DNA of 64,000 nucleotides from an uncultured Bdellovibrionales bacterium (GCA_964500125.1 CAZCMV010000002.1:4173-68172), one strand, 5' to 3'. Positions 1,612 to 52,990 are shown, numbered from the stretch's first letter. The notes: a model not told the origin generated them from the sequence alone. Numbers and translations: made by a program.

Positions 1612-1625
1612 TAAATATTAAAAAA

Positions 1626-2225
1626 TTATTTTTTAGACTTGATAAATTTAGTAGACTTGGTAGGCCTGGTAGGTTTTTTACTTTTACACTTAAATCCTAT
1701 TTCCCTTGTATTTTCAATTTCTCTTGTTTCATTATTATCCTCCAGCAATTTACGAAGTGTATCAAATATAACTTTAAACTTCTTGTTGTAGCTGTCTTCT
1801 AATTTATCCAGTCTGACCCTAAGCTCTTTATTACTGACAATCATCTCACGCAATTTCACGAAAGTCCTTATTATTTGAATATTGACCTCAATCGCCCTGT
1901 CACTATTCAATACACTCGACAACATCGCCACCCCTTGCTCCGTAAACACATACGGCAAATATTTGTAATGCTCGCCTCTTTTTAAGGTCACAAATTGTGA
2001 TCTTAAAGAATGGGCCTCTTCTTTTTTAAGTTGAAACATGAAATCGTTAGGGAATCTTTTTATATTTCTCTTAACAGCCTGATTAAAAACTCTGGTTTCC
2101 ACTCCATAAATAAACGCCAAGTCCTTATCTAGCATCACTCTCCTTCCGCGAATCAAAAATATCTTTTGTTCAATAATTTCCGACGGAAGCAATGTTTTTT
2201 CTTTTTGTATTTTATTATTTCTCAT
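1626..2225 (-). CDS. ORF6N-domain protein (KilA-N/antirepressor-related DNA-binding domain)
   Basis: N-terminal IRGRRVMLDKDLAFIYGVETRVFNQAVKRNIKRFP matches ORF6N signature; co-directional and immediately upstream of lexA. Confidence 0.6.
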   Translation of the reverse strand: MRNNKIQKEKTLLPSEIIEQKIFLIRGRRVMLDKDLAFIYGVETRVFNQAVKRNIKRFPNDFMFQLKKEEAHSLRSQFVTLKRGEHYKYLPYVFTEQGVAMLSSVLNSDRAIEVNIQIIRTFVKLREMIVSNKELRVRLDKLEDSYNKKFKVIFDTLRKLLEDNNETREIENTREIGFKCKSKKPTRPTKSTKFIKSKK

Positions 2226-2542
2226 TTTTTATTTTTCCTTTAACTTTCTTTTAGCTTTTTATTTTCTATTTTATGTTATAAACTTTATAGACTTTTTAAC
2301 TTTTTAAACATAACCAATGTTATTCTATCACTACTGCTTTATCACTGTCAACTCTTTGCCTGTGCATAACTTTTTTCTATTTTTTTGGCTTAAAAAAAGC
2401 AAAAAATAGTAGTAATCTTCTCGTACCACTCTGCAAAAAAACTATTGAAAAATTATTTTAAAAATCTTACCATAATCTTGCTTGGGTTTTCGTCGCCCCA
2501 TATTTCCTTCCCACCCACATTTTCCTTTGCTTTCAAGACACG

Positions 2543-2571
2543 AAAAAAGAGAGCCGAAGCTCTCTTTTTTC
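2543..2571 (-). terminator. rho-independent terminator after rpoC (bidirectional hairpin AGAGAGC-cgaa-GCTCTCT flanked by A/T runs)
   Basis: Perfect 7-bp stem, CGAA loop, T6 on plus and T-run on minus strand. Confidence 0.6.
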
Positions 2572-2621
2572 TATTTGAAACTCGCTTTTCCTGACTAGCT
2601 AACTAGCTAATACCTGAATAG

Positions 2622-5600
2622 CTATTTTCTATACCCCGTTCCTGCAGGAATCAAACGTCCGATGATCACGTTTTCCTTGAGACCGCGGAGTTTGTCATCT
2701 TTGCCGGTAACTGCGGCATTGATCAGCACGCGTGCTGTTTCCTGGAAGGATGCGGCTGAGAGGAAGGATTCGGTTGAAAGGGCTACTTTTGTGATACCCA
2801 TGATCATGATCTCTCCTTCAGCTACCTCGCCACCGTTGGCAATTGCTTCTTCATTAGCTTCATTGAATTGATCGCGTTCCACGATGTCTCCTGGCAAAAG
2901 ATCAGTATCACCAGGATTGAGAATCTTGACGCGGCTGAACATCTGGCGGATCACTACTTCAATGTGCTTGTCATTAATTCCTTCACCTTGTGATGCATAA
3001 ATCTCTTGGATTTCGCGGATGATGTAGCGATGGACTTCTTCCTGTCCCATGGTTTGATATAGTTTCTTGAGGTCGATGTGTCCTTCATTGATTTGCGTTC
3101 CCTTGCCCACAAGTTGTCCTTTGCTCACCAAAATGGTTGAGCCGGCAGGCACGAGATAATCAACATCTTCCTGTTTCTTGCCTTGGGTTTGGATGCGCAC
3201 TGTCACCGTCTTCTTGTTCTCATTGATGATGTCGGTAACCACACCGTCCACTTCGGAAATAATCGCTTCACCTTTCGGCGGACGACATTCGAAGATTTCT
3301 TCCACACGTGGAAGACCTTGCGTAATGTCAGATCCAGCAACACCTCCGATATGGAACGTACGCATCGTCAACTGCGTTCCTGGTTCACCGATAGCCTGTG
3401 CGGCCACCGTTCCCACGGCTTGTCCAATTGCCACAATATCACTGCGTCCCAAGTCAACACCATAGCATTTCTGACAAACACCACGACGTGTCTTGCAAGT
3501 TGCTACACTACGGATCTTCACTTTCTCCACATTTGCTTTTTCAATTTCCTTAGCTTCTTCCTTGGTCACACATTTGCCTTTCTTTGCCAGAACTTCTCCC
3601 TTTTCATTTTTCACATCTTCAACAGTGAAACGTCCTTCCACGCGAGCAGCAAAACTTTGACCAATCTTATCGGAATCTGCTTTATATAGATATGCGCCTT
3701 CTTTGTCGCCACAATCTTCTTCACGCACAATGATATCTTGCGCCACATCAACCAAACGACGAGTGAGATATCCAGCAGTAGCAGTACGGAGAGCGGTGTC
3801 GGCCATACCTTTACGTGCACCGTGAGTCGAAATGAAATATTCCAACACGTTGAAACCTTCTTTGAAGGAGCTCTTTACCGGCAGTTCGATCGTTTCACCG
3901 GTCGGTCCTGCCACCAAGCCCTTCATACCCATCATCTGCACTACTACCGATTCGGATCCGCGAGCTTTGGAATGAACCATGGAATAAACAGGTCCTTCTT
4001 TGTCAAGTGAAGCGCTAACCACATCCGCGATTTGATTCTTCGCGCGATTCCATACTTCCACAGCGCGGCTCTTGCGTTCTTCTTCGGTCAAAAGACCCAT
4101 GTTGTATTGCTGATTGATTGCTTCCACATCAGCTTCCGCTTTTTTCATGATGTCATATTTCTCTTCCGGCACTTTGAGATCATCCATACCCCAACTGATA
4201 CCACTGCGTCCAGCCATGCGGAATCCCAAATGTTTGATACGATCAATGAATTGCGCCGTCTTCTCCTGACCATACATGCTCAAAACCTTAGCCACCAAAA
4301 CTTTCAAATCCTTCTTGGTCATTTCTTCATTCACAAAGCGCAGCTCTTCCGGTACGATGTCGTTAAGTAGCACGCGTCCGGCGGAAGTTTCAATCATTTG
4401 ACCATCCCAAAGCATCTTTATTTTTGCATTGATAGCAATGATGCCCGATTGGAAAGCCAGAATAACTTCTTCCATCGAAGAGAACGCCTTGTCTTCACCC
4501 TTCAAGCCATCTTTCGTGTGAGTCATGTAATATGCACCAAGCACAATATCTTGCGACGGCACAGCAATCGGTTCTCCCGAAGCAGGCTTGAGCAAGTTCT
4601 TTGCAGAGAGCATCACGTTGCGGCTTTCTTCACGCGCTTGATCCGTGAGAGGCACATGCACAGCCATCTGGTCACCGTCGAAGTCTGCATTGAACGCGGC
4701 ACATACCATTGGATGTACTTGAATAGCTTTTCCTTCGATCAATACTGGCTGAAATGCCTGGATCGATAAACGGTGCAGGGTTGGGGCGCGGTTCAAAAGT
4801 ACATAGTGATGCTCGATGATTTCGTCGAGGATTTCATATGCTTCTTCCGCTTCCGCATCCACCATACGACCAGCGGTGCGAACATTATGTGCAAATTCTT
4901 TTTCGATAAGTTTGTTGATAATGAACGGCTTGAAAAGTTCAAGCGCCATTTTCTTCGGCAGACCGCATTGATGAAGCTTAAGCTGCGGACCAACCACAAT
5001 CACACTACGACCAGAATAGTCCACACGTTTTCCGAGCAAGTTCTGACGGAAGCGTCCTTGCTTTCCTTTTAGCGCATCAGCTAGTGATCGCAATGCTCTT
5101 CTTTGTCCTGTGGAAGCAGCTACACTAGCCTGTCCCTTGCGAGCACTATTGTCAAAAAGTGCGTCCACCGCTTCTTGCAGCATACGTTTTTCATTGCGAG
5201 TAATAACCTCCGGTGCACCAAGCTCCATTAATTTTTTGAGACGATTATTGCGATTGATAATACGACGATAGAGATCGTTAAGATCAGAAGTTGCAAAACG
5301 TCCTCCGTCGAGCGCAACCATCGGACGAAGATCTGGCGGAATAACTGGAATAGCCTTAAGCAACATCCATTCTAGCTTAAGGCCAGCTTTTTGAAATCCC
5401 TGAAGCAATTTCAAACGTTTGAAAGCTTTTTTGCGATCTGTCACTTCATCATTATCCAGTTCAGTTTTGATTTGCTTGATAGCTTTCTCAACATCCATTT
5501 TCTCCAAAATTTCGCGAATCGCTTCGGAACCAATACCGGCAGAGAAAACCTGTCCAAAACGAGTGGAAAGATTGAAATATTCAAGTTCGGAAAGAATCTG

Positions 5601-6200
5601 CAGCGGCTTAAGATTTTTGAGTTCTTCCTTGAGGCCGCGATATTGTTCCTTGAGTTCTTCCAATACTTCGTCGGTTGAGCCAACACGATCCACTTTACCA
5701 CCTTTCACTTCTTTCTGTTTGGTCTTATATTCTGCCTCCAATTGATCCAAAACCGAAGTGCGGATTTTCTCATCAACATTTTTCACAATATAAGAAGAGA
5801 AATAAACAACCTTTTCCAAACTTTGCAAAGAAACTCCCAGTGCCAAACCGATTTTGGAAGGTACGCCACGTAAAAACCAAATGTGCGAAACCGGCACAGC
5901 CAAACTAATATGACCCATGCGTTCGCGACGCACGATAGAGCGAGTCACCTCCACGCCGCATTTGTCACAGACAATACCTTTATAACGAATACGTTTATAT
6001 TTTCCACAATAACATTCCCAGTCCTTGGAAGGTCCGAAAATCTTTTCACAGAAAAGTCCGTCTTTTTCATATCGCTGAGTACGATAATTGATAGTCTCCG
6101 GCTTGGTTACTTCTCCGTGCGACCAATTGGTGATGTCTTCAGGACTTGCCAGCTTAAGACGCACGCTGTTGAAATCACTTACCTTTGTAATATTTTCCAT
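2622..6200 (-). CDS. rpoC: DNA-directed RNA polymerase subunit beta'
   Basis: 1192 aa; N-terminal zinc-binding [30 protein letters not shown] catalytic motif. Confidence 0.97.
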
Positions 6201-6241
6201 AAGTTTATTTATTGAATGATAATCGTCAGATTAATTAATTA

Positions 6242-9200
6242 TTAGATCTGATCAATATCTTCTTCGGGCTTGTTTTCTTCCTCTTCTTCGTCAGAAGATT
6301 CCGCAAGCTTGGAGCCGACCAATTCCACATCCAAGCAAAGTCCTTTAAGTTCATTAACCAGCACATGGAAAGATGCCGGAATGTTTGGACTCTTGATTTT
6401 TTCGCCCTTAATTATTGATTCATATGCTTTGCTGCGTCCGAGCACATCGTCTGATTTGATGGTCAACATTTCTTGCAAGGTATAAGCTGCGCCATAACCT
6501 TCCAAAGCCCACACTTCCATTTCTCCGAAGCGCTGTCCACCAAACTGTGCCTTACCGCCAAGCGGCTGCTGAGTGATCAAGGAGTATGGTCCGATCGAAC
6601 GCATGTGAATCTTGTCTTCCACCAAGTGGTTCAGTTTCATCACATACATCACACCGACCGTTGTTTCATTATCAAAATATTCACCTGTCTTTCCGTCGAT
6701 CAAACGAACCTTGCCGCTTTCCGGAAGTCCGGCTGCGCGCAATTCTTCTTTAATCTGATCTTCCGTCACTCCCTCAAGCACAGGAGTTGCTGCTTTATAG
6801 CCAAGTTTCAAAGCGGCCCAACCAAGATGAGTTTCCAAAATCTGACCGATATTCATACGACTGGCCACGCCCAATGGATTAAGAATCACATCAACCGGTG
6901 TTCCATCAGGTAGATATGGCATATCTTCAATCGGTGCAATGCGAGAGATCACACCTTTGTTTCCATGACGTCCAGCAAGCTTGTCACCCACTGATACCTT
7001 ACGCAATTGTGCCATTGAAACTTGAATTTGTTTGATCACACCTGTCGGCAACTTGTCGCCTTGTTCGCGAGAAAGAATCTTGATATCCACGATCTTTCCG
7101 TGCTCACCGTGCGGCAGATAGAGTGAAGAGTCCTTCACGTCTTTGGATTTTTCACCAAAGATCGCGCGAAGCAATCTTTCTTCCGGTGTTAAATCTCCTT
7201 CACCTTTCGGAGTAATCTTACCAATCAAAATATCTCCGGAAGAAACTTCCGCACCGATGCGGATAATTCCGGTTTCATCAAGATTCTTGAGGCGTTCTTC
7301 ACCAATGTTCGGAATATCGCGCGTCACGACTTCGCTTCCGAGTTTAGTGTCACGTACGTCAATAGAGAAATCTTCAATATGAATCGAACTGTAACGATCT
7401 TCTTGCAACAGTCTTTCCGAAAGGATAATAGCATCTTCAAAGTTGTAGCCGTCCCACGGAATGAAAGCCACCACCATATTTTGTCCAAGTGCCAATTCAC
7501 CGTTGTCAGTTGCCGCGCCATCGGCCAGAAGGTCGCCTTTCTTAACCATTTGTCCTTTGGTTACACGTGGCGCTTGACTCATGCTAGTGAAAGCATTTGA
7601 TTTCTGAAAGCTTTGCAGCACATATTCGCGTTTGATGTGGTCTTTCTTTACTCCTGCAGGCGCTTGTTCCTTAACCACTATGTGCGCTGCATCCACTTCA
7701 ATCACTTCACCATCATTAGCAGCAAGCACTACCTGTCCGGAGTCACCGGCAGCTTTGTCTTCGATACCGGTTCCCACAATTGGAGATTGTGGCACGATAC
7801 AAGGCACTGCCTGACGTTGCATGTTTGAACCCATCAGCGCGCGGTTGGCATCATCGTGTTCCAAAAACGGAATCAAGGATGTTGCTACCGAAATGCACTG
7901 TTTGGCACTTACATCTAAATAGGTAAGACTTTGTGCTTCAATCATTTCAGGATGTCCTTTCACGCGAGCTTCCACAAACTCTTCTAAAATATTGTAATTC
8001 TCATCCATATCAATACAAGCGTGACCGATAATATTGCGATCTTCCACTGTCGCATTGATATATTCTACTTCGCGAGTCACATATGGTTTGATGCGAACTT
8101 CCTGGCTTCTAGATTTTGCCAATTTCTTGGCCATATCCGCATTGATCTTTTCGCTAGCCTTGCCCACACCGGAGACATCTTCCGCCAAAATACGATTTTC
8201 CAAATCCTTACTGTCGCTTGGCATCGAAGTCAACACCTTTATATATGGGGTTTCCAAGAAACCAAATTCGTTGACACGTGCATAAGTGGACATGTGTCCC
8301 ACCAAACCAATGTTCGGACCTTCCGGAGTTTCCACCGGGCAAATGCGACCATAATGTGAATGATGCACATCACGCACTTCAAATCCAGCACGCTCTCTTG
8401 TAAGTCCTCCCGGACCCATCGCAGACAAAAGACGCTTATGTTCCAATTCAGCCAACGGATTTACTTGATCCATAAACTGTGAAAGTTGAGAACTAGAAAA
8501 GAATTCTTTGATCGCAGCAGCTACCGGGCGAGAATTGATCAGTTGTCCTGGCACTACGGTTGCCACATCGCAAGTACTCATACGATCTTTGATGTTGCGA
8601 GCCATACGAGCCATACCGATGCGCAGCTTGTTTTGAATAAGTTCACCCACTCCGCGCACGCGACGATTGCCCAAGTGATCAATATCATCAGCGATCGCCA
8701 TCGGATCATTATTAAGACGAATGATTTCTTTGATAATCAGAATCAAATCATCCATGCGCAAGATACGGTTTTCTTCGCTGTCCGCACGATCCACTAGCAA
8801 ACGCTGATTCAAACGATAACGTCCCACGCTACCGAAGTCATATTTTTCAAAATTGAAGAACATCGATTCGACCAATTGTTTGGCATTTTCTTCGGTTGCC
8901 AAATCTCCCGGACGAATACGCTTATATATTTCCTTAAATCCTTCACCCTGATTCTTGGTGATATCTTTGGAAAGAGTGGTCTCAATAAATTTAACCTCGC
9001 CGTTATCAATATCCGCAAAAGCCGCCAAAATTTCTTCGTCTTTTTGCATACCAAAAGCACGCAGCAGCGCCGTAATCGGCACTTTGCGTTTTCTGTCAAT
9101 ACGTACGGAAACCACTCCATCAAGCGCCGTATCTATTTCCAACCATGCGCCACGGTTTGGAATAATTTTGGCACCGAACAATTTCTTGCCGCGCTGATAT

Positions 9201-9673
9201 TCCATATTGAAGAATACTCCGGAGCTGCGGATCAGCTGACTTACTACCACACGTTCCACACCATTGATCACGAATGTGCCACGCTCAGTCATTACTGGAA
9301 AGTCACCCAAATAAATTTCCTGCTCTTTCACTTCGCCGGTTTTCTTGATAGTCAACCTAGCCTTAGCGCGAAGCGGTGCTTCGTAGGAAATGTTTTTATT
9401 CCTTGCAATTGCCTCGTCGTATTTCGGTTCATCGAGGTAATAATCTACTATAGAGAGTTCCAAATCCTTGCCGGTGAAATCACCGATCGGATTAACCTCG
9501 TCCAAAAGTTCCTTAATACCCTTATCGAGCACCCATTTGTACGAGTCGATCTGCGCTTCGATAAGATTCGGCAACGAGACCATAAGCTGTTTCTTGAAAA
9601 ACTTTCGACGCGATAGCGACGACGAAGGAGAATAGGACTCCTTCACTTTGAGGGTCTTTTTTTCTTGAGACAT
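6242..9673 (-). CDS. rpoB: DNA-directed RNA polymerase subunit beta (start chosen at MSQEKK with SD GAGAGGTG; ORF track extends to 9688)
   Basis: ~1143 aa, conserved rpoB blocks throughout; rpoB-rpoC adjacency. Confidence 0.95.
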   Translation of the reverse strand: MSQEKKTLKVKESYSPSSSLSRRKFFKKQLMVSLPNLIEAQIDSYKWVLDKGIKELLDEVNPIGDFTGKDLELSIVDYYLDEPKYDEAIARNKNISYEAPLRAKARLTIKKTGEVKEQEIYLGDFPVMTERGTFVINGVERVVVSQLIRSSGVFFNMEYQRGKKLFGAKIIPNRGAWLEIDTALDGVVSVRIDRKRKVPITALLRAFGMQKDEEILAAFADIDNGEVKFIETTLSKDITKNQGEGFKEIYKRIRPGDLATEENAKQLVESMFFNFEKYDFGSVGRYRLNQRLLVDRADSEENRILRMDDLILIIKEIIRLNNDPMAIADDIDHLGNRRVRGVGELIQNKLRIGMARMARNIKDRMSTCDVATVVPGQLINSRPVAAAIKEFFSSSQLSQFMDQVNPLAELEHKRLLSAMGPGGLTRERAGFEVRDVHHSHYGRICPVETPEGPNIGLVGHMSTYARVNEFGFLETPYIKVLTSMPSDSKDLENRILAEDVSGVGKASEKINADMAKKLAKSRSQEVRIKPYVTREVEYINATVEDRNIIGHACIDMDENYNILEEFVEARVKGHPEMIEAQSLTYLDVSAKQCISVATSLIPFLEHDDANRALMGSNMQRQAVPCIVPQSPIVGTGIEDKAAGDSGQVVLAANDGEVIEVDAAHIVVKEQAPAGVKKDHIKREYVLQSFQKSNAFTSMSQAPRVTKGQMVKKGDLLADGAATDNGELALGQNMVVAFIPWDGYNFEDAIILSERLLQEDRYSSIHIEDFSIDVRDTKLGSEVVTRDIPNIGEERLKNLDETGIIRIGAEVSSGDILIGKITPKGEGDLTPEERLLRAIFGEKSKDVKDSSLYLPHGEHGKIVDIKILSREQGDKLPTGVIKQIQVSMAQLRKVSVGDKLAGRHGNKGVISRIAPIEDMPYLPDGTPVDVILNPLGVASRMNIGQILETHLGWAALKLGYKAATPVLEGVTEDQIKEELRAAGLPESGKVRLIDGKTGEYFDNETTVGVMYVMKLNHLVEDKIHMRSIGPYSLITQQPLGGKAQFGGQRFGEMEVWALEGYGAAYTLQEMLTIKSDDVLGRSKAYESIIKGEKIKSPNIPASFHVLVNELKGLCLDVELVGSKLAESSDEEEEENKPEEDIDQI

Positions 9674-24537: not shown

Positions 24538-24781
24538 ATTTTTAGATAAAAATGACAGCGCATCTCTGTCGATTATTATTAAATGATGCGTAATACAAAA
24601 ATTTCCTCAAAAATGAGGAAATTATTAAGAAATATCATGAGATTTATTCATCTCGTTATTAATTTTTCTTAATAATTACTTCAAAAACACTCTAACATAA
24701 AATATTTATTTTGACAATAGTCCTATAGGATCACCCTTGGGACCCTTTTCTTTTTCTATAATTTTGTTATATTATCTCGTT

Positions 24782-25276
24782 ATGAAAGAAGTCCTGACAA
24801 AATCAATTCAAGAAACGAAAAAACTCGCCCAAGAAATAGCGAGTGATTTTAAAGGTGGCGAGATTATTTGTTTATCTGGTGATCTAGGCGCAGGCAAAAC
24901 GACATTTGCTCAAGGTCTTTTGGAAACGCTTGGCGCCGAAGGACCTTATACAAGCCCGACATTTAATATAATCAAAGAATACAGAGTTGAGAATCTGGAA
25001 TTCAGAATAAGAATAGCGAATAAAGAATTTAAGGATGATGACGGATTCAAAATTCAAAATTCAAAATTCAAAATTCTTCGCATTTTCCATATCGATGCAT
25101 ACAGAATAAATTCCGATGATCTTCTTGAACTTGGCTTTCAAGATTTTGCAGGTAAAGAAAATACTGTCACCATCATCGAATGGCCGGAAAATGTGAAAGA
25201 CATAATACCCGAAACGGCAAAGTGGCTAGATTTTGAATGGCTTGATGAAAAAAAGCGCAAAATTTCAATAAACTAA
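24782..25276 (+). CDS. tsaE: tRNA threonylcarbamoyladenosine biosynthesis protein TsaE, with unusual internal insertion (start placed at MKEVLTKS)
   Basis: GDLGAGKTTFAQGL Walker A and SPTFNIIKEY motif; insertion ENLEFRIRIANKEFKDDDGFKIQNSKFKILRIF. Confidence 0.7.
   Translation: MKEVLTKSIQETKKLAQEIASDFKGGEIICLSGDLGAGKTTFAQGLLETLGAEGPYTSPTFNIIKEYRVENLEFRIRIANKEFKDDDGFKIQNSKFKILRIFHIDAYRINSDDLLELGFQDFAGKENTVTIIEWPENVKDIIPETAKWLDFEWLDEKKRKISIN
25045..25072 (+). repeat. heptanucleotide tandem repeat (ATTCAAA)x4 inside tsaE coding sequence
   Basis: Visible as attcaaaattcaaaattcaaaattcaaa. Confidence 0.8.
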
Positions 25277-25293
25277 CGAAAATCAATTTGTTA

Positions 25294-25324
25294 AAAAAAT
25301 TAGGCGAAACCTTTGCGGTTTCGC
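25294..25324. terminator. bidirectional rho-independent terminator between convergent tsaE and 25346..25756 genes
   Basis: GGCGAAACC-tttgc-GGTTTCGCC followed by T7; A-run upstream. Confidence 0.6.
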
Positions 25325-25345
25325 CCTTTTTTATAATGATGAGCT

Positions 25346-25756
25346 CTATCGAGTGAGCCAGCCGGTTTTTTCTTGCTTAGCTAGTTCCTCCTCGATTTTG
25401 CCCTCTTTTATGTTAGCACCTCTATTGTCGTATTTTATGACGACCGATTTTTCTTCTGCCAACATGGTTTTAATACGCCTTTCTATGGCCGACAAGGCTT
25501 GTTTTGTGCCCGGATCGACTTTTCTATAATTACCGAAAGGTTTTTTCACATCACCACCTTGCACATAAACAAAGCAGTTCTCCTCAAGTTTGTTTTTACA
25601 AACACCCAACGTCTCTTCTATACTTAGGACGCCTTCTCCTGTTTTATTTTTGACTACTTCTTTGACAATTGTAGTTACCATGTTTCTCTCCTTTTCCTGC
25701 AAATTCAGGATTTTGTAATTTTCCCCTGTGTTCAGAGGTAATTCACCATAGCTCAT
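25346..25756 (-). CDS. hypothetical 136-aa protein
   Basis: ORF track; no recognised domain; ends in a bidirectional terminator. Confidence 0.4.
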   Translation of the reverse strand: MSYGELPLNTGENYKILNLQEKERNMVTTIVKEVVKNKTGEGVLSIEETLGVCKNKLEENCFVYVQGGDVKKPFGNYRKVDPGTKQALSAIERRIKTMLAEEKSVVIKYDNRGANIKEGKIEEELAKQEKTGWLTR

Positions 25757-25848
25757 TTATACCTAAAATGCAAGCATTGACAAATTTCGTATTTGTGTTA
25801 TCCTATAATCCCTCTTTAACAATACAACATCACGGAAAGGAGAATGAA

Positions 25849-26352
25849 ATGCGATATGTGGGAGATTCCAATTTTAAAAGCACACTGGAAAAAATGGTGA
25901 CAAAACTTTTGTCTGGAGAAAGTCTACAGAATATAAATTTCCGTATAGTTCAGGGTGTTTATTTTTTAGCCCAAACCTGGACCATCGAAACGGACCACCG
26001 CGTTGTAATAAACAAAAAGCTTGGCAGAATGATGCACACAGATCGTGGCCTAAAGCGAGCGTACGCTGTCCTTGCCCATGAAATCGGCCACATATTCTTC
26101 CATAACTATTTCTTAGAAAAAGGGGCTCTTGCAAATGACACTTCTGCCTTTTCAGTCATGGCGGAAAAAGAAGCTGATAAGCATGCAGTACGCTTGCTGA
26201 AGAAACTTTATCCTAACCCGAAAGAAATTCTTTTGGATCAGATAGCATATGCACTGAAAATCTCGCTCAAGTATGCCAAAACTGAGGAAAAGAAAGGGCT
26301 GGCAAAAACTTTCGCCAAAGAGAGAAAACTTTCTTTGAATGAATTGGGTTGA
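25849..26352 (+). CDS. ImmA/IrrE-family (DUF955) zinc metallopeptidase (start at MRYVGDS with SD AAGGAGA 5 nt upstream; ORF track begins earlier)
   Basis: LAHEIGHIFFH HExxH motif followed by EKEADKHAVRLL, matching ImmA/IrrE E.EAN.FA..LL signature. Confidence 0.65.
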   Translation: MRYVGDSNFKSTLEKMVTKLLSGESLQNINFRIVQGVYFLAQTWTIETDHRVVINKKLGRMMHTDRGLKRAYAVLAHEIGHIFFHNYFLEKGALANDTSAFSVMAEKEADKHAVRLLKKLYPNPKEILLDQIAYALKISLKYAKTEEKKGLAKTFAKERKLSLNELG

Positions 26353-26387
26353 TTTTATTCTTTTTCTGTGCTACAATTGATTTATTG

Positions 26388-26420
26388 GAAAGACGGGTGA
26401 ACAACATCCGTCTTTTTTAT
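26388..26420 (+). terminator. rho-independent terminator after ImmA-like gene (AAGACGG-N11-CCGTCTT + T6)
   Basis: 7-bp stem and T-run. Confidence 0.55.
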
Positions 26421-26442
26421 TTAATTTGTTAAAAACAAAAAA

Positions 26443-26604
26443 ATGAGCTTAAAAGAACCGTTTATGCCTCAGCAAGAACCTGCCACCGAGGACAAAAAGG
26501 AGGGGCAGGGTCAAATGGTGGTTTATCCTGATGGAACCACCGAATTCGCAAAAGATGCTCAAGACGCCGCAGAAAAAATGCAAAAGTATCGCGAAAACAG
26601 ATAA
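26443..26604 (+). CDS. small ORF, 53 aa, acidic hypothetical peptide bracketed by terminators (below ORF-track size cutoff)
   Basis: ATG 26443, TAA 26602..26604; MSLKEPFMPQQEPATEDKKEGQGQMVVYPDGTTEFAKDAQDAAEKMQKYRENR; immediately followed by a hairpin + T-run. Confidence 0.3.
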   Translation: MSLKEPFMPQQEPATEDKKEGQGQMVVYPDGTTEFAKDAQDAAEKMQKYRENR

Positions 26605-26605
26605 C

Positions 26606-26640
26606 TCACCAAAAAACCCGATATTCATCGGGTTTTTTAT
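26606..26640 (+). terminator. rho-independent terminator (AACCCGAT-attc-ATCGGGTT + T6); second hairpin AGAGCC-N5-GGCTCT + T5 at 26650..26672
   Basis: Two tandem hairpin/T-run structures. Confidence 0.55.
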
Positions 26641-26820
26641 ATTAACAAAAGAGCCATTACAGGCTCTTTTTATTGTATTATTTTTCCGGCATTGTATATT
26701 TTTAATATCTGATATGAACGAATTTAAGGAATAAAAACGGATGAAATTCTGACATATTTCGCAACAGAACGAAAAAGAACCGGTCAGGCTCTTGGGGTTT
26801 TGTTTATTGACCATTTTAAT

Positions 26821-27696
26821 TCAGCAACATGATCTTATTTCATTTGAAATTTCAATCAACATTTTTCTGATAAGCTTTTGAAGTGCGGGTAATGTTTTTC
26901 TTAAAAATTTTCGGCGCTCTTCATCACGCTTTCTCTCTTCCTCTTGTGCCTCTTCTTCTGTAAGCAATCCGATAATCTCATTCTTGCATCGTGAAGAAAA
27001 ATAGTGCTTTTCATTTTTTTGTCTTCTTGCAATTGTTTTTTCTTCTTTTCTCGTCATTTCAACTAAATCCTCAATCGACATTCCATTAATTGCCTTTTTT
27101 CCATAAACCCTACTACAAGCAAGCCTGCACGCAATCATCATGGAGTCATTTATTAATTCCGTCATGGTTATACATTCGCCGATTCTTACCATGTAATCGC
27201 GTGTGGAATCAATTCCCATTTTGATGTCTAAAGTCCACAAAGCGCTCCATAGCGGTCCAAAATCAGCAAAACGCATGCTCTTTTCATAGAAGCCGGAATA
27301 ATCTCTTACATGATGCATCTCATCGTAAACTGCTGACAAGGTATATCCTAGAATAAAATATTTTTCTACCAACTTGCATATTTTAAAGTAAATCGGTGAA
27401 AGTATCTCATTCTCTTCCGGAAAATGAAGCGACAGTCCCTCGTGCCCATATCGATCGGAATGACTGTCGTTTTTTACTGCCTTTTTAAATAATGGAAACA
27501 ATTCCCTATGTACACCTACACATATCAGATCATGGCAAGAATAAAAGCTATTTGCCTTGTAAGAATTTACATTGTAATGATTGCTGTAATCCCGGGGCTT
27601 ATTGCTTTTACCTTCTCCAAATGGGCGCGCACCTGAATGCTTTTCCAGCCAATTCAATAATAAATCGGCATCCTCTTTACTTATTTTTTTGCTCAT
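26821..27696 (-). CDS. hypothetical 291-aa protein, His/Cys-containing N-half, charged coiled-coil C-terminus
   Basis: ORF track; no confident family assignment. Confidence 0.4.
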   Translation of the reverse strand: MSKKISKEDADLLLNWLEKHSGARPFGEGKSNKPRDYSNHYNVNSYKANSFYSCHDLICVGVHRELFPLFKKAVKNDSHSDRYGHEGLSLHFPEENEILSPIYFKICKLVEKYFILGYTLSAVYDEMHHVRDYSGFYEKSMRFADFGPLWSALWTLDIKMGIDSTRDYMVRIGECITMTELINDSMMIACRLACSRVYGKKAINGMSIEDLVEMTRKEEKTIARRQKNEKHYFSSRCKNEIIGLLTEEEAQEEERKRDEERRKFLRKTLPALQKLIRKMLIEISNEIRSCC

Positions 27697-27862
27697 GGCT
27701 CTATTATCCTTTTTGATTGTTTTTGATTGTTAATTTACTTTGTCAGCTTCATGCTAACGGCTTATACTAGCAGTTTTTTCATGTTTTGTCAATATTTTTC
27801 CGACACTATTTTTTAGATTATTTTCCGACATTTTTCCCCACTTTATTAACACTATTTACATA

Positions 27863-27895
27863 TTATCCACAGGGTTATACACTATATGTGGATAA
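27863..27895. promoter_or_regulatory. perfect inverted pair TTATCCACA-N15-TGTGGATAA immediately upstream of TrmB-family regulator gene
   Basis: Exact DnaA-box consensus in palindromic arrangement 24 bp before the ATG at 27919. Confidence 0.45.
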
Positions 27896-27918
27896 AGTGT
27901 CGGTATTTTTGAACAAAT

Positions 27919-28689
27919 ATGTCTACCAGCCTCAAGTCATTACAGAAACTAGGTCTTAGCGAAAAAGAAGCTAGGCTTTATTTGGTTTCCCTGGAAACAG
28001 GACCTGCCACCATTGCAAAATTGGCCCAGAAATCAGGAGTCAAAAGAGGCACCATATATGAATTTCTTGGCGAAATGATTGACAAGGGAGTTTTTGAAAT
28101 TTCAATTTCTGGAAAAAGAAAGCTTTACTGCGGCGTTGAGCCTAAAAAATTAAAGAGAATGATCGACAAACAAAGGAAAATTCTTGATAGTCTTATTCCA
28201 GATCTGTCTTTGCTCGCCTCCAAGGGAACCGAAAGACCTAAAATTAAATTTTATGAAGGTAAAGATGGATTATTATCAGCTTATTATGAAATTCTTAACA
28301 GCCCAAAAGGAGAGGAAATTTTAGGTTTTTCCACATTTAAAGGGGTTTATGAAATATTTTCAAAAATCGAAATAAATAATTATATCAAAAAGAGGGTTGC
28401 AAAAAAAATCAAAGAGAAGCTTATCATGCCGACTGATGAGCATATGCATAATCACCTTGCGGACAATAAAAAGGAGCTACGCGAAACAATTATGATTAAT
28501 AGGAAAAATTTTCCTATTAATAATGAAATAAATATTTATCAAGATAAGGTTGTTATTATATCCCTAGGCGAAGAAAAGGTAGCTGTCGTTATTGAGTCAA
28601 AACAAATTGCCCAGACGCAACGGGCTATTTTTAACCTGCTCTGGAAAAGCTTAAGAAAAAAGAAGGATACTGAAATAAATTCAGCATAA
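27919..28689 (+). CDS. TrmB-family transcriptional regulator
   Basis: N-terminal wHTH LGLSEKEARLYLVSLETGPATIAKLAQKSGVKRGTIYEFLGEM typical of TrmB. Confidence 0.6.
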   Translation: MSTSLKSLQKLGLSEKEARLYLVSLETGPATIAKLAQKSGVKRGTIYEFLGEMIDKGVFEISISGKRKLYCGVEPKKLKRMIDKQRKILDSLIPDLSLLASKGTERPKIKFYEGKDGLLSAYYEILNSPKGEEILGFSTFKGVYEIFSKIEINNYIKKRVAKKIKEKLIMPTDEHMHNHLADNKKELRETIMINRKNFPINNEINIYQDKVVIISLGEEKVAVVIESKQIAQTQRAIFNLLWKSLRKKKDTEINSA

Positions 28690-28736
28690 TAACTGCATAT
28701 TTGTATTATTTTAACTCTCATATATACTAAAGGACT

Positions 28737-31442
28737 ATGAAAAATAACCTCAAGAAACTCATTCTCATCGACGGTAATGCCATTATTCATCGGGCGTATC
28801 ATGCTTTGCCGCCTCTCACGACCAAAAAAGGCGAGCTGGTTAATGCAGTGTATGGTTTCACCTCAACGCTGCTTAGCGTAATTGAAAAGTTTAAGCCAGA
28901 CTATATTGCCGCTTCTTTTGATTTAGCCGCACCTACTTTTCGTCATGAAAAATTCGAAGAATATAAGGCTAATCGTGTGAAAGCCGATGATGAATTGTAT
29001 GCCCAAATTCCCTTGGTGAAAAAAGTGGTTGAAACTTTCAATATTCCGATCTATGAAAAAGCTGGCTTTGAAGCTGACGATGTGATCGGCACTTTGGCTA
29101 AACAAGCTGGAAATCTAGATAACAATGTAGAAACTATTATTGTTACGGGTGATATGGACACGCTGCAGCTCATCGATGAAAACACAAAAGTATACACCAT
29201 GCGCCGCGGGCTAAGCGATGCCATCATCTATGACACTGCCGCTGCCACCCAAAGATATGGCGGACTCACACCAGAACAGCTGATTGATTATAAAGGTCTT
29301 CGCGGCGACCCGAGCGATAATATTCCAGGTGTGAAAGGCATCGGTGAAAAAACGGCAATTACGCTGCTTTCGCAGTACGGTTCAATTGAGGGTGTGTATG
29401 AACATCTTGAAGAAATCAAAGGCGCAGTCAAAGAAAAACTTGCGCGCGACAAAGCGCAAGCGCTGCTCAGCAAGGAACTGGCAACGATAGATCGCAATGC
29501 GCCGGTGCAACTGGAACTGGAAAAAACTGTTTTGCATGATTTTGATCGCGATAAACTGGTGACACTTTTTGGAGAGCTTAATTTTTATAGTCTGGTTAAA
29601 AGGCTTCCTGCTGACCGATTCGAAACTACGAATGATAAATTCAAATCTGCGAACAAAAATACAAAATCCAAGGGGGTGAAGGATTTTAAGTATGAAATTT
29701 TGGGAGAGACTGAATCCGAAATGACTTTTGAGAAATTGGGTAAACAAGAAGCGTTGTCTATCGCGCTTGATGTGCGAGAAAACGCATTGAAAGGCGTGGC
29801 TTTTTCTTGGAAAACCGGCCGTGCAGCTTATATCCCCTTTGCTTCCTCTAACTCAAACAGTATAAAAGATATTCTGGAAAACGCTGCTATCAAAAAAATC
29901 GGCCATGATATAAAGACAATTTACAAAATATTAGCGAAAGAAAATATCAAACTTGCCAACATTGCTTTCGATACCATGATTGCTGCCTATGTGCTTGATC
30001 CGGGAAAGCCGGTAGTCCTTTCCACACTCACGCTGGAATATCTCGGCGAAGAACTTTTTCAAGAAACAAAAGGTAAACAACTTTCCATGCTGGAACTACC
30101 TGATGAAAAAGAATTTTCCGACCGCACATGCAAACAAGCCGATTATGTTTTCAAATTGCACGCCTCGTTGCAAAAAGAACTGGTGACAATCAGTGAGCAG
30201 CAAAAAAGTAGCGACCATCATACGGTTGCAGAAGTTTTTGAAAAAATTGAAATGCCTTTGGTGGAAATATTGGCCGAGATGGAATTGGAGGGAATCACCT
30301 TAAACACGCTCGTGTTCGAAGGTATCGCCGAAAAACTCGGTAAGCGTTTGGAAAATTTGGAAAAATCAATTCACGAACTTGCCACAAAAGAATTTAATAT
30401 CAACTCCCCTTCTCAACTTGCCGATATTTTGTTTAACACGCTGCAACTGCCTACTGTTGATATCAAAAAGGGCAAAACCGGTTATTCTACTGCTGCCGCC
30501 GAATTGGAAAAGCTACGCAGCGAGCACAAGATTATTGAAAAAATCGAGGAATATCGAGAATTATTTAAGTTAAAAACGACTTATCTTGATACGTTGCCAA
30601 CCATGGTTGATGAAAATTCGCGCATTCACACCACTTTCAACCAGGCCGTTACTGCTACTGGTCGTTTGTCTTCTGCAGATCCAAATTTGCAAAATATTCC
30701 AATTAGAACGGATTTGGGACAATTACTACGCACTGCGTTTGTGGCCAAAGAAGGATACAAGTTGATCAGTGCCGATTATTCTCAAATTGATTTGCGCTGC
30801 GTTGCACATGTAAGTGGTGATAAAAAAATGATCGAGGCTTTCCGACGCGGTGATGATATTCATCGTTTGACTGCAGCGGAAGTGAACAAAGTCACGCCTT
30901 CACAAGTAACCGAAAAAATGCGCTCTAGTGCCAAGGCGCTTAATTTCGGTATCATTTATGGCATGAGTTCGTTTGGTTTTTCTCAGTCTGCCGGCATTTC
31001 CAGAGAGGAAGCGCAAAAATTCATTAACGCCTACATGGAAAATTTTTCCGACGTAGCCCGTTATATGAAAGAAACTCGAGAATTTGTGCGCAATAATGGC
31101 TGGGTGGAAACATTACTCGGCAGGCGTCGCAATTTGCCTGAAATTAAATCACCTAATTTCCAAGTTGCCGCTTCTGCCGAGCGTATGGCCATCAATATGC
31201 CCATCCAAGGCCTTGCTGCCGATATTATGAAGCTTTCCATGGTAAAAGTGTTTGAAGCCTTTAAAAACAATCAAGAAGTAACTATGCTCCTGCAAATACA
31301 CGACGAAGTAATCTTGGAGGTACGAGAAGATTTAGTGGAGAAAATTGCAAAAAAAGTAAAAGAATTAATGGAAAATGTTCTTGTACTCAGTGTTCCTTTG
31401 ATTGTAGACGTGAACGTGGGAGATAATTGGGGAACCATATAA
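28737..31442 (+). CDS. polA: DNA polymerase I
   Basis: 5'-3' exonuclease N-domain plus family A polymerase motifs (DYSQIELR-like ADYSQIDLR, QIHDE). Confidence 0.95.
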   Translation: MKNNLKKLILIDGNAIIHRAYHALPPLTTKKGELVNAVYGFTSTLLSVIEKFKPDYIAASFDLAAPTFRHEKFEEYKANRVKADDELYAQIPLVKKVVETFNIPIYEKAGFEADDVIGTLAKQAGNLDNNVETIIVTGDMDTLQLIDENTKVYTMRRGLSDAIIYDTAAATQRYGGLTPEQLIDYKGLRGDPSDNIPGVKGIGEKTAITLLSQYGSIEGVYEHLEEIKGAVKEKLARDKAQALLSKELATIDRNAPVQLELEKTVLHDFDRDKLVTLFGELNFYSLVKRLPADRFETTNDKFKSANKNTKSKGVKDFKYEILGETESEMTFEKLGKQEALSIALDVRENALKGVAFSWKTGRAAYIPFASSNSNSIKDILENAAIKKIGHDIKTIYKILAKENIKLANIAFDTMIAAYVLDPGKPVVLSTLTLEYLGEELFQETKGKQLSMLELPDEKEFSDRTCKQADYVFKLHASLQKELVTISEQQKSSDHHTVAEVFEKIEMPLVEILAEMELEGITLNTLVFEGIAEKLGKRLENLEKSIHELATKEFNINSPSQLADILFNTLQLPTVDIKKGKTGYSTAAAELEKLRSEHKIIEKIEEYRELFKLKTTYLDTLPTMVDENSRIHTTFNQAVTATGRLSSADPNLQNIPIRTDLGQLLRTAFVAKEGYKLISADYSQIDLRCVAHVSGDKKMIEAFRRGDDIHRLTAAEVNKVTPSQVTEKMRSSAKALNFGIIYGMSSFGFSQSAGISREEAQKFINAYMENFSDVARYMKETREFVRNNGWVETLLGRRRNLPEIKSPNFQVAASAERMAINMPIQGLAADIMKLSMVKVFEAFKNNQEVTMLLQIHDEVILEVREDLVEKIAKKVKELMENVLVLSVPLIVDVNVGDNWGTI

Positions 31443-50209: not shown

Positions 50210-52990
50210 TCAAACAGTTTTATTTTTACCCAATCCCGGTGTGACATAGAAAATAGCTCCCATAACAACAATCATCAAGACAGCAGTTAATGCAAGTCTC
50301 AACAAAAACATCATCTCTCCTGGAAGATTGCTTACCAGACTTGCCATTAATCCTCCTTTTGCCTTGGCTAATTCATCATAACTTTGAACAACTTCCACCT
50401 CCGCCGAGGAGTCCAAATACCTTTCCGTTGCATCTTGTGCGGAAACTCCCCAAATATTATAAAGGGCTTTTCTCACATTCAAAACCTGCTCTTCATCTGT
50501 CGCCATAGCATAAACAGCTTCTATTGAAACATCGTAAGTAGAGCCCTCCCCATTTTCTGCAAGAAACTCAAGGTTTTCACTGTTTGCATATTGATCACCA
50601 TCAACTTCCCAAAAATAAGTCGCATAGCTGCTTATCCATGATGGCGTGAAAGCAGCCTTCATAAACACGCTGTTTCCTTGAATCGTTTCAAAAAGAATAC
50701 TACTATTATCAGCGGTTTCATTTCCCTCCATATCTTTGTATATTCCCAGTTGTTTGGGCCACACTAAATCCTTATTCGCAGATTCTATATTCACAGATGG
50801 TTGCACTATCTTAAATTTTCTATTCACTGTTTGAGCCATTTTTGTTTTCGTGTCTTTGAATGTAACTTCGGCTTCAAATATTTCTCCGTCTGTTCCAACT
50901 GCTGGAAAAAATATAATGTTACTACCCGTTTCTTTGCATTCAGAAGAATGTTCACTATTGCAAAAAACATTTTCTTTGTTTATTTTCCAAGAAAAATTCA
51001 CTAATTGACCATCCTTATTAGGAATAGCTAAACCTATTATGGAATTTTCTATTATAGGACATTCTGCAAGTTCCTCTCCCTCTGTACAAATCTCACTATC
51101 CTTTTTTAAACTAATCTTACCATCATCATCCGCTTTTACCAGATAAGCATCTATATCAGTGCTAGATTTAGTTAATTGTACAATAGCTGATCCCCTACCT
51201 ATCCTATTTTGTTCCGAAGAATTTTCAGATACCTTGGCTTTTATTCTTATATATTGTACCAGTCTATTGGAACCATAAAAAATGTCATCTGGAAATTCAG
51301 CCTTAAATTCAAACTCATTAATACCAAAACCTTTCATTGTTGAATGTTTTTCTAATTTATTTGTGACATCAATCCATTTATCATCCAAGGGCGCTTTTGT
51401 TCCATCATTACTTGCCTCAACGGTCCACTCATAATAAAGAGAAGAAACATCATCTGTTCCACTGACGGTCGTTTGTGCTTTTATATTATCACCCGTGCCG
51501 GTGCGCGTAGAATCATTATTTGCTCTACTTGGATTAGCTAAAACATTTACTTCTAAATTTCCAACACCACCTCCGGTCGGATCCAAAAGATTTTCTTCAA
51601 GACAATCATTTAAATCAAAATCAACCGTGAGGAATCCTGTGTCAATTTGAGGAACTTTTTGATATTCAACATAAAAAGCTCTCTTCTTTTTTATTTCATC
51701 ACTAAATTTCTTACAAACATTATTTGAGAAAGCCCAAGTTCTCATATAGGCATTGTCATCATGCTTGGTAGCAACAGCACTAATACCCTCAACAGCAAGC
51801 CCTACCTGATCCCCAGACCTATAAGTCCAAGAAAATGACTTCGCTCCCAAACCAAGCACATTAGCCTCGTCCGGAATACCGTTTTCGGCAGTAGACTTAT
51901 TATTTGGATCAGTTCCCCAAAATTTCTCCTCAGCCATTTCAAAATCCCCGTCTCCAGTTTTTATATTTGAACCACGAAGATCCTTAGGAGCAACTTGGGT
52001 TGGAAACAAATGCTTACAAAGATTATTAGATTTCTTGAAAGTACAGGTTGGCGATCCTGTTGATATAACAGAACACATCCCTCCAGCACTCAGATCCTCT
52101 TTTAAAATATTGCATATAAACTCCTTATTTGCAGAATCGTTGACAATATATTCAAAAATAGTCCTATTTGATTGTCCGCAAACCGGATTTTTTTGTTGTG
52201 TCGAAGCTAAACCACTGATTTGAGGACACTTAACTCTAGCTTGAAAATTTTCAACATCCTCATCACTTTCCACTTTGCACTCATAATCGTCAGTCTCTGC
52301 ACATATATTGCGAGTACCGGATTCACAAGTTATCAACTCATTTTTACCACAAGCCACAGATCCTCCTGATTCACAAGAATAAACAGGGATCGTTTTTCTT
52401 AACTCATAAAATCTTCCTTTTTCAAAATCTTGAATATAACAATCCTCTATATCCACATCATTTTGAGATTTATATGGCATTTCCCAATCACCAGGATCAG
52501 GACTAACCTCATACCCATCACTATTGGAATCACTAGAGCTATTATAATCAGTATCATTCTCCTTATCAAAGTCTCCTTTAGCAATTATTTTAGCAGCCTC
52601 TATCTTCCAATCATTAACTGTAATCTTGCCATCATTATCCCTATCACATGAACCACCTGAAGATCCTAATTCACAGCCCTCTCTTTTTAAATACCAAGTA
52701 TAATAAAGTTCATCAGAATCTTCTTTAAATCCCTGTGGTAAGGCTTGTGCCACTATCTTATCTCCGGTTCTGGCTGTTAGATTATCAAATGTCACCTTAA
52801 CTTCCACGCCTTGTTTTTTCATAGAAGCTGAGTATGCCTCTTTTAAATCAGAGGGGCGTAATAATTGTATCCTTCCCCCAACTACTGGATCAGCTGCCAA
52901 AGAAAAAAGTGGAGATAAAATTAAAACAATAACTTGAAAAGTTAAATAAAAAATAAATATTATTTTTTTTGTTTTAAAAAAAGAATTCAT
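50210..52990 (-). CDS. 926-aa Cys-rich secreted surface protein with EF-hand/dockerin-like Ca sites and C-terminal TM anchor
   Basis: Signal peptide; DRDNDGKITVND; GTDPNNKSTAENGIPDE; more than 40 Cys; C-terminal LALTAVLMIVVMGAIFYVTPG helix. Confidence 0.55.
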   Translation of the reverse strand: MNSFFKTKKIIFIFYLTFQVIVLILSPLFSLAADPVVGGRIQLLRPSDLKEAYSASMKKQGVEVKVTFDNLTARTGDKIVAQALPQGFKEDSDELYYTWYLKREGCELGSSGGSCDRDNDGKITVNDWKIEAAKIIAKGDFDKENDTDYNSSSDSNSDGYEVSPDPGDWEMPYKSQNDVDIEDCYIQDFEKGRFYELRKTIPVYSCESGGSVACGKNELITCESGTRNICAETDDYECKVESDEDVENFQARVKCPQISGLASTQQKNPVCGQSNRTIFEYIVNDSANKEFICNILKEDLSAGGMCSVISTGSPTCTFKKSNNLCKHLFPTQVAPKDLRGSNIKTGDGDFEMAEEKFWGTDPNNKSTAENGIPDEANVLGLGAKSFSWTYRSGDQVGLAVEGISAVATKHDDNAYMRTWAFSNNVCKKFSDEIKKKRAFYVEYQKVPQIDTGFLTVDFDLNDCLEENLLDPTGGGVGNLEVNVLANPSRANNDSTRTGTGDNIKAQTTVSGTDDVSSLYYEWTVEASNDGTKAPLDDKWIDVTNKLEKHSTMKGFGINEFEFKAEFPDDIFYGSNRLVQYIRIKAKVSENSSEQNRIGRGSAIVQLTKSSTDIDAYLVKADDDGKISLKKDSEICTEGEELAECPIIENSIIGLAIPNKDGQLVNFSWKINKENVFCNSEHSSECKETGSNIIFFPAVGTDGEIFEAEVTFKDTKTKMAQTVNRKFKIVQPSVNIESANKDLVWPKQLGIYKDMEGNETADNSSILFETIQGNSVFMKAAFTPSWISSYATYFWEVDGDQYANSENLEFLAENGEGSTYDVSIEAVYAMATDEEQVLNVRKALYNIWGVSAQDATERYLDSSAEVEVVQSYDELAKAKGGLMASLVSNLPGEMMFLLRLALTAVLMIVVMGAIFYVTPGLGKNKTV

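Follow-up and report, generated by a model that had tools for sequence, protein, structure and literature searches.

Several bacterial systems, among them ImmA/ImmR, CapP/CapH, and BlaR1/BlaI, follow a protease-plus-partner logic. The Glu helix of ImmA/IrrE peptidases has the form ExxAN. The cut that ImmA makes in its partner ImmR separates F95 from M96 and lies in an acidic loop (PMC6868357), and the HExxH and Glu residues of IrrE are H82, E83, H86, and E113, with a His-to-Glu spacing of 27 (PMC12828697). Here we describe a locus at positions 25346 to 27696 of a 64,000-nt stretch of DNA deposited under the name of an uncultured Bdellovibrionales bacterium (GCA_964500125.1, CAZCMV010000002.1:4173-68172); the whole stretch is referred to as the window, and coordinates given for the locus are those of the window. 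The locus encodes a small zinc metallopeptidase that the original prediction, made from the sequence alone, had described as an orphan ImmA/IrrE-like enzyme among proteins of unknown function. All four open reading frames (ORFs) that it listed are present where it placed them. We postulate that the cognate partner of the peptidase is an acidic 53-aa mini-protein encoded directly downstream, which would serve as its substrate or pseudo-substrate; we infer that the two proteins interact, and we put the probability of such a protease/cognate-partner module at roughly 0.45.

The gene contexts of relatives were compared by BLAST and hidden Markov models, and their loci are labelled L001 to L124. 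The names attached to the related loci place them in "Candidatus Moraniibacteriota," in keeping with a lineage in the Patescibacteria. A small ORF of the same family as the mini-protein lay directly 3' of the peptidase gene, on the same strand, in all 12 assessable low-GC lineages of the candidate phyla radiation (CPR) type (the window, L003/4/5, L014, L016, L017/18, L019, L020/21/23, L055, L088, L121, L122, and L124), across which peptidase identities drop to 27 to 36%. Because it is conserved in 12 lineages with ratios of nonsynonymous to synonymous substitution rates (dN/dS) of 0.13 and 0.017 in two estimates, which indicate strong purifying selection, the 53-aa ORF is a real gene. Its product has a KEPFMP-like motif at the N terminus, then a charged linker whose length varies, and a C-terminal Y/G-P-D-G-T sequence followed by a helix, and it had no family match in Pfam, NCBIfam, PADLOC, or PHROGs. 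The mini-protein is acidic in all 11 lineages for which charge was computed (isoelectric point [pI], 4.7 to 5.4), versus a pI of 9.7 for the basic peptidase of the window. Its gene lacks a Shine-Dalgarno sequence and has an A-rich leader ending in AAAACAAAAAAATG.

In the simplest loci (L016, L019, L055, and L121), tsaE, the peptidase gene, the small ORF, and polA follow one another on one strand; L122 shows the same peptidase-small ORF-polA order, with an upstream ORF that was not identified. The pair is also conserved in a second genomic slot, in L124, where it sits between gmk and rpsA, not between tsaE and polA, with a 12-nt gap between the two genes. Both genes are absent from a strain (L009) that is closely related to the window. 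We propose that the old core of this composite locus is a two-gene module in the tsaE-polA slot of Moraniibacteriota-type Patescibacteria and that the 111/136-aa gene and the pair formed by the 291-aa gene and a TrmB-family gene are later insertions into that slot. The features of the region are collected in Table 1.

Table 1. Features of the peptidase/mini-protein locus and its surroundings (window coordinates)
Feature	Position	Strand	Basis or remark
tilS, gmk, rpsA, tsaE			Housekeeping genes upstream of the locus
tsaE	24737-25276		Upstream housekeeping gene
136-aa ORF	25346-25756	-	Divergent neighbour; sub-lineage-specific
Promoter-like site, TTGACA-16-TATCCT with TG	25777-25804	+	Consensus scan; divergent intergenic region upstream of the peptidase gene
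Strain-variable block (peptidase, 53-aa, 291-aa, and TrmB genes)	25813-28751		Between tsaE/111-aa gene and polA; blastn
Shine-Dalgarno sequence AAGGAGA	25837-25843	+	Read from sequence; 5 nt before the ATG at 25849
Zinc metallopeptidase, 167 aa, compact gluzincin	25849-26352	+	ORF, family alignment, AlphaFold2 model
Small-gene promoter	26349-26377	+	-35 TTGATT overlaps peptidase stop codon; extended -10 TGCTACAAT
Promoter-proximal hairpin GAAAGACGGGTG...CATCCGTCTTT and T-run	26387-26422 (stem 26387-26417)	+	Scan, folds
Acidic mini-protein, 53 aa, pI 4.8	26443-26604	+	Conserved ORF directly downstream of the peptidase gene
Hairpin CCCGAT/ATCGGG with flanking A and T runs	26617-26632		After the small gene; sequence, fold
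Second downstream terminator-like hairpin	26647-26670		After the small gene; scan
291-aa protein	26821-27696	-	Many conserved His, Cys, and Asp residues; charged helical tail
TrmB-family winged-helix regulator	27919-28689	+	Pfam PF01978, 8.9e-15; divergent from the 291-aa gene
polA	28737-31442		Downstream of the TrmB gene

The promoter and hairpin that precede the small gene are conserved along with it. A TTG.TTTT-N12-TGCTAYAAT promoter was invariant in seven of seven loci that had been found solely by protein homology and was also detected in L121, L122, and L124. A hairpin begins 11 to 19 nt after this promoter, with a conserved 5' arm (AACGGGTG ... CCCGT) and then a T-run. It was kept in 11 of the 12 lineages, with conserved ACGGGTG...CCGT arms; in L124 the promoter was kept and no hairpin was found. 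In an alignment of 17 hairpin sequences, 94% of cells were paired, versus 41 to 64% after the 3' partner was slid; with a 5' arm that is nearly constant, true covariation is scarce. These sequences were used to build a covariance model, which retrieved the element, at 71 to 75 bits, from L121 and L122, two independent loci. The terminators after the small ORF differ in sequence between lineages, so the conservation of the upstream hairpin is specific. The predicted transcription start of the small gene lies only a few nucleotides before the hairpin, a putative terminator of the peptidase transcript that would also sit at the 5' end of the transcript of the small gene. The original prediction had the 53-aa ORF as a transcription unit of its own between terminators, and the hairpins on both sides and the conserved promoter agree with that reading; a scan found 8 terminator-like sites in the region, versus 2.3 +/- 1.4 in shuffled sequences.

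If the two proteins form a module, the N-terminal motif of the mini-protein (K-E-P-F/M-M/I-P) would lie in the active-site cleft of the peptidase, and the charged, disordered linker would tether it to a small PDGT/helix domain. Once in the cleft, the mini-protein would be either cleaved or retained as a pseudo-substrate inhibitor. Its own promoter and the promoter-proximal terminator, possibly by attenuation, would set its level independently of the peptidase. By analogy only, the site at which ImmA cleaves ImmR recalls the mini-protein, where an acidic stretch comes after a conserved pair of residues that is F-M or otherwise hydrophobic.

The same combination of promoter and hairpin, which we call the cassette, occurs elsewhere. 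An exact-pattern scan of species-representative genomes gave 99 matches, 3 of which were at peptidase loci. Eighteen matches lay directly upstream of an unrelated membrane-anchored protein of ~200 aa (L024, L050, L056, L060 to L062, L066, L072, L075, L097, L098, L103 to L106, L109, L113, and L119). This protein carries the motifs AKKESNWG, NYWGYRG, and VWKCG and has weak Glucosaminidase matches; the 11 loci with a label are assigned to Moraniibacteriota or Patescibacteria, with some labelled "uncultured Bdellovibrionales." In these places the promoter reads TTGATTTT-N12-TGCTAYAAT and is followed immediately by the ACGGGTG hairpin and T-run. The identity of the 5' arm among pattern-derived matches is by construction, whereas that of the -35 hexamer, the complementary 3' arm, and the T-run is not. 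The covariance model also found a variant at L013:1400-1469, upstream of a 118-aa acidic protein beside a homologue of the 291-aa protein.

From its distribution, the shared cassette looks like a leader or regulon signature; an attenuator, a 5' stabiliser, and a short RNA are candidate roles. A broader idea, that the pair is a previously undescribed CPR proteolytic switch with a terminator-gated supply and a regulon-like set of cassettes that takes in the muramidase-like protein and the small acidic protein, strikes us as quite unlikely. If it were true, the switch might, for instance, link one shared signal to remodelling of the envelope or to interaction with a host.

Other explanations of the cassette were tried and set aside. 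The window holds a single copy of it, and ACGGGTG occurs 3 times in the 64 kb versus 2.0 times expected, unlike an uptake sequence or a genome-wide-repeat terminator. Nor is the hairpin a generic promoter feature: the window has five strong promoters with an extended -10, and a hairpin comes after only one of them. A palindromic operator was rejected on the varying spacing of the arms; loop lengths of about 3 to 10 nt point to an RNA hairpin and not to a dimer binding site. In promoter-coupled terminators (Fletcher et al., bioRxiv 10.64898/2026.08.19.745784), the terminator precedes the promoter, which is the opposite order. Around the hairpins, no Rfam family reached its gathering score, and there were only sub-threshold matches at chance level. 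As a separate observation, a near-identical promoter/leader (TTGATTTTT...ATGCTAAAATGTTnATAGAAGTTGACACTTTTTAA) lies upstream of the TrmB genes of two distant lineages, at L017:5553-5606(-) and L020:11663-11717(-); these leaders score 33 to 36 bits with the cassette model and have no ACGGGTG hairpin.

The peptidase itself appears to be an intact enzyme. The product catalogued in the source collection (P0035, NCBI/Logan) has 194 aa and begins at an ATG at 25768; we prefer the start at 25849 because every homologue has M-x-Y-V-G as its N terminus. The good Shine-Dalgarno sequence reported for this gene was found in front of that start. HEIGH (H77/E78/H81) and AEKEADKHAVRLL (E106 and D110) are kept across the 29 members of the family alignment; H77, E78, H81, D110, and Q131 do not vary at all, and at least 90% of the members have E106. 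The layout is HExxH, 24 intervening residues, and then E-x-x-A-D, a spacing of 25 from H81 to E106. The alignment supports H77, E78, H81, and E106 as the predicted catalytic residues, all of them intact in the window. The protein is predicted to be cytoplasmic, with no transmembrane segment (maximum 19-residue hydropathy [KD19], 0.79) and no signal peptide. Its AlphaFold2 model (mean predicted local distance difference test score [pLDDT], 85.9) shows a backing helix, a 3-strand sheet, an active-site helix, a Glu helix, and two further helices. No known family in Pfam, PADLOC, NCBIfam, PDB profiles, or Foldseek matches the whole domain, and for that reason we call the enzyme an unassigned compact gluzincin.

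This family is very rare. It comprised 7 clusters in an index of 5.8 billion proteins, and a profile search of 1.84 billion representative proteins gave 23 clusters. Protein-pattern scans of genome and metagenome contig collections with the close-family alignment found no further peptidase, and a viral contig collection scanned with the 29-member alignment yielded nothing. Beyond its own sub-lineage, the closest relatives (51 to 54% identity) are on contigs with 51% GC from a different organism (L001/L002 and L006). A rough neighbour-joining tree, computed without support values, nests this group among CPR members, which suggests horizontal transfer. The gene cluster of these relatives (genes at 121-9207) encodes two lipoproteins, a 75-aa protein, an 827-aa ATPase, a 113-aa protein, and the peptidase, followed by an unrelated 298-aa protein, a 149-aa protein, and a DUF1848 protein, with no mini-protein. 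The ATPase is of the DUF87/TrwB type and matches PADLOC mad8 (1.7e-15) and phrog_5156 (5e-42); a defence or mobile context is possible for this cluster.

The small ORF and the peptidase do not seem to have evolved at one rate. The small ORFs of L004 and L014 are nearly identical (dN 0.008, dS 0.47), whereas the adjacent peptidase genes differ with dN 0.28 and dS 1.57. This contrast points to a mosaic locus, with quicker divergence or exchange of the peptidase than of the adjacent small ORF.

The tsaE-polA interval varies even between near-identical strains. L009 shares 92 to 97% nucleotide identity with the window on both flanks (25050-25812 and 28752-31433), and ~2.4 kb of other sequence (L009:3459-5863) replaces the block that holds the peptidase, encoding a 326-aa wHTH-PRTase-CE protein along with a protein of 236 aa; L009 retains the 136-aa gene. 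Together with the turnover of neighbours, this replacement identifies the interval as a recombination-prone slot that varies at strain level. Judged from the loci compared, the slot is occupied most often by the peptidase/mini-protein pair, whereas its other genes are cargo that can be interchanged and is shuffled among relatives.

The divergent gene upstream, described as encoding 136 aa, is present, but its true product is probably 111 aa, starting at M26 (ATG at 25681, with AAGGAGAG before it). Only two homologue clusters were found, both of 110 aa. Weak homology (pairwise E, 7e-5) links it to a 77-aa gene that occupies the corresponding position in L003. No gene lies between tsaE and the peptidase gene in L016, L019, L020, L055, L121, or L123, and the genes that precede the peptidase gene in L017/L018, L088, and L124 are different ones. 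As a side observation, in one sub-lineage an 89- to 100-aa Cys-rich protein is encoded immediately upstream (L017:5718-5987 and L088:784-1086), abutting or overlapping the peptidase gene; it is apparently a zinc ribbon (CxxC...CxxC), and TrmB is divergent to its operon.

The 291-aa protein has two homologue clusters, both of which adjoin TrmB divergently with no peptidase nearby. In L003/L014 a coiled-coil protein of 300 aa, unrelated to it, takes its position, and nothing is found there in L016, L019, L055, L121, and L122. Homology among the ~300-aa proteins at the equivalent position (291 aa in the window, 300 aa in L003, and 298 aa in L001) was tested, and none was found. Neither this protein nor the 136-aa protein had a meaningful match in Pfam, NCBIfam, PADLOC, or PHROGs; a PDB profile search with the 291-aa protein returned nothing meaningful, and its AlphaFold2 model was unusable (pLDDT, 51). 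The TrmB gene recurs nearby in L003, L017/18, L020, L088, and L124, and also in L010. On the gene orders compared, the 291-aa gene is an insertion that accompanies TrmB.

Turning to the housekeeping gene upstream, the TsaE of the window matches Pfam in two separate stretches. Its DNA aligns with L003 and L014 in two blocks separated by a gap of ~100 nt (24982-25082), which points to an insertion of ~33 aa in the window protein (ENLEFRIRIANKEFKDDDGFKIQNSKFKIL); the listed TTG start is probably too far upstream. GC content across the locus is unremarkable. Elsewhere in the window it falls sharply to 0.284 at 52001-54000, compared with about 0.35 to 0.40 in the rest.

The main rival to a module of peptidase and mini-protein is mere neighbourhood, in which both genes would be old residents of a conserved tsaE-polA block, each working alone, the peptidase as a general protease or on some other substrate and the mini-protein as an unrelated small protein. 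Several observations weigh against the module, some of them in favour of neighbourhood. The co-occurrence is almost wholly inside one phylum with conserved gene order, and 11 of the 12 pairs share one syntenic slot; synteny by descent thus accounts for much of the pattern. The mini-protein is absent from three non-CPR peptidase lineages (L001/2, L006 to L008, and L015; GC, 45 to 51%), which means that the peptidase can exist alone. The terminator between the genes and the separate promoter make them separate transcription units and argue against strict co-expression, and the small ORF in L124 matches the mini-protein profile weakly (E, 0.0014). A lack of any functional link nevertheless sits poorly with the presence of the pair together in a different slot in L124, with the joint loss of both genes in L009, from a slot of high variability whose other genes are readily replaced, and with complementary charges in all lineages computed, and we consider it unlikely.

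Other readings give the peptidase a different task or target. In the minimal loci the pair stands directly upstream of polA and then fpg, and Foldseek lists SPRTN chains (6mdw/6mdx; probability, 0.69 to 0.92), minigluzincins, and SprT-like viral proteins, as might be expected of a DNA-repair or quality-control protease tied to polA-fpg, directed at DNA-protein crosslinks in the manner of SprT/Wss1/Spartan or at damaged proteins in the manner of HtpX, with the mini-protein as a regulator or DNA mimic. The structural matches are weak (template modelling [TM] score, 0.31 to 0.44), SprT-like Pfam models match 1 of the 29 members, the peptidase has no DNA-binding domain, the module is dispensable at strain level in L009, and polA is not adjacent in L124; we regard a repair role as improbable. 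We give even less weight to cleavage of the nearby TrmB regulator in a switch of the ImmA/ImmR, CapP/CapH, or BlaR1/BlaI type with a winged-helix repressor. TrmB lies within a few kilobases in 6 of the 12 peptidase lineages (the window, L003, L017/18, L020, L088, and L124) and is divergent to the peptidase operon in L017 and L088; in 17 of the 29 members the segment from HExxH to Glu is matched by a CapP profile, and the size and His-to-Glu spacing of the peptidase are ImmA-like. Against this, no TrmB was found within about 1.7 to 6 kb on each side of the peptidase in L016, L019, L004, L055, L121, or L122, TrmB pairs with the 291-aa gene in the window as it does in L010 without a peptidase, and few kinds of regulator are common in these genomes, the TrmB type being one of them. 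The proposal made in the original prediction, a non-canonical ImmA/IrrE switch with one of the 291-aa and 136-aa proteins as its target, or else a module of these genes that serves defence or resembles a toxin-antitoxin pair, could draw on their physical adjacency in the window, on a strain-variable slot in which relatives carry conflict-system-type domains (wHTH-PRTase-CE), and on the mad8-like ATPase (1.7e-15) that adjoins distant non-CPR peptidases. The 291-aa family was never found with the peptidase outside the window, and no peptidase occurs in L010 to L013; unrelated proteins or nothing stand at its place elsewhere, the 136-aa gene persists in the near-identical strain without the peptidase, and none of the 291-aa, 136-aa, and 53-aa proteins has a PADLOC match. 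Because these neighbours are not conserved together with the peptidase among related genomes, the test that the original prediction had itself set, neither protein holds up as the target, and we consider this proposal very improbable.

In the tiny genomes of Patescibacteria few regulators can be recognised, which makes every conserved regulatory module informative. Here a rare zinc peptidase family is tied to a mini-protein of a kind that annotation pipelines easily miss, and the promoter-then-terminator cassette, common to two unrelated genes, offers a testable cis-element for an uncultured lineage. A partner that does not bind DNA would, if true, extend the protease-plus-partner logic of ImmA/ImmR, CapP/CapH, and BlaR1/BlaI. 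Should the pair be merely neighbours, the analysis still removes a false "orphan ImmA" call and reveals the tsaE-polA interval as a variable insertion slot.

Among known families, M48 (HtpX, BepA, Ste24/ZMPSTE24, and Oma1) gives the best profile match. PF01435 scores 24.1 bits on the window peptidase (cut-off, 20.3) and covers only profile positions 45 to 76 of 186; it matches 23 of the 29 members, marginally (best E, 1.1e-5). The Glu helix, E106-K-E-A-D110 with D110 invariant, aligns to the "NEQEAD" of BepA, and BepA and Ste24 were the best, non-significant results of the PDB sequence-profile search, aligned through HExxH and ExEAD. NCBIfam gave marginal matches to Lit, YpfJ, and HtpX only. 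Foldseek listed ZMPSTE24, MATCAP, BlaR1, SPRTN, and minigluzincins from the PDB, all with E of at least 7e-3 and TM scores of at most 0.55, with ZMPSTE24 on top (E, 7e-3; query TM, 0.52 to 0.55; root mean square deviation, about 9 A). Among viral models, a phage "Peptidase M48" came first (TM, 0.58), and "IrrE" models scored 0.34 to 0.38. The enzyme differs from M48 in that profile and sequence matches span only ~32 to 57 residues with TM scores of at most 0.58, in that aligning it with BepA requires a gap of 40 residues after HExxH to reach the Glu where the peptidase has a spacing of 25, and in that M48 proteases are membrane-embedded or exported, whereas the peptidase has neither a transmembrane segment nor a signal peptide. 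The presence of BlaR1 among the Foldseek matches is a likeness to the M56 sensor proteases BlaR1/MecR1.

Archaeal minigluzincins (proabylysin and selecase/projannalysin) have a layout of a backing helix, a 3-stranded sheet, an active-site helix, and a Glu helix, and the model of the peptidase resembles this minimal soluble design. Foldseek matched it to these structures (4jiu and 4qhf-4qhj) with a probability of 0.57 to 0.89, a target-normalised TM score of 0.49 to 0.63, and E of 0.08 to 0.33. The peptidase is ~60 residues longer, with two extra C-terminal helices, and sequence identity is 15 to 20% (E, 0.08 to 0.3). Minigluzincins are not known to have a partner protein.

With ImmA/IrrE the comparison is mixed. 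The HEIGH motif behind the original assignment is real and its catalytic residues are intact, but membership in the family is not established: PF06114 (Peptidase_M78) has no match to the window peptidase at E of 1 or less and matches 5 of the 29 members below significance (best E, 0.0054), and no IrrE chain was among the top 50 PDB results from Foldseek. The PADLOC CapP model scores 22.9 bits on the window peptidase, over residues 74 to 117 only (~44 residues), and matches 17 of the 29 members. The Glu helix reads ExxAD and not ExxAN, and the partner proposed here is a 53-aa acidic protein with no helix-turn-helix (HTH), encoded downstream with its own promoter, and not an XRE repressor. No XRE gene lies beside the peptidase gene in the window or in those relatives' loci that have Pfam-annotated gene tables, a check from which L055, L088, and L121 to L124, whose ORFs were not scanned for HTH domains, were excluded. 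The earlier statement that a catalytically intact HExxH...E enzyme stands here without an adjacent XRE repressor is thus borne out; as a claim that no HTH partner exists at all it goes too far, given the TrmB-family winged-helix regulator nearby, which the original prediction had overlooked. TrmB is the sole HTH type in the neighbourhood, and its presence is not conserved with that of the peptidase. The likenesses to ImmA/IrrE (MEROPS M78, COG2856) lie in the single soluble domain, of 167 aa here and 169 aa in ImmA, and in a His-to-Glu spacing of 25 here versus 27 in IrrE, a feature common to other gluzincins and therefore non-discriminating. As in ImmA/IrrE systems, including CapP of the cyclic-oligonucleotide-based antiphage signalling system (CBASS), a small gene, here that of the proposed dedicated partner, adjoins the protease gene, and the peptidase may act like an ImmA-type enzyme.

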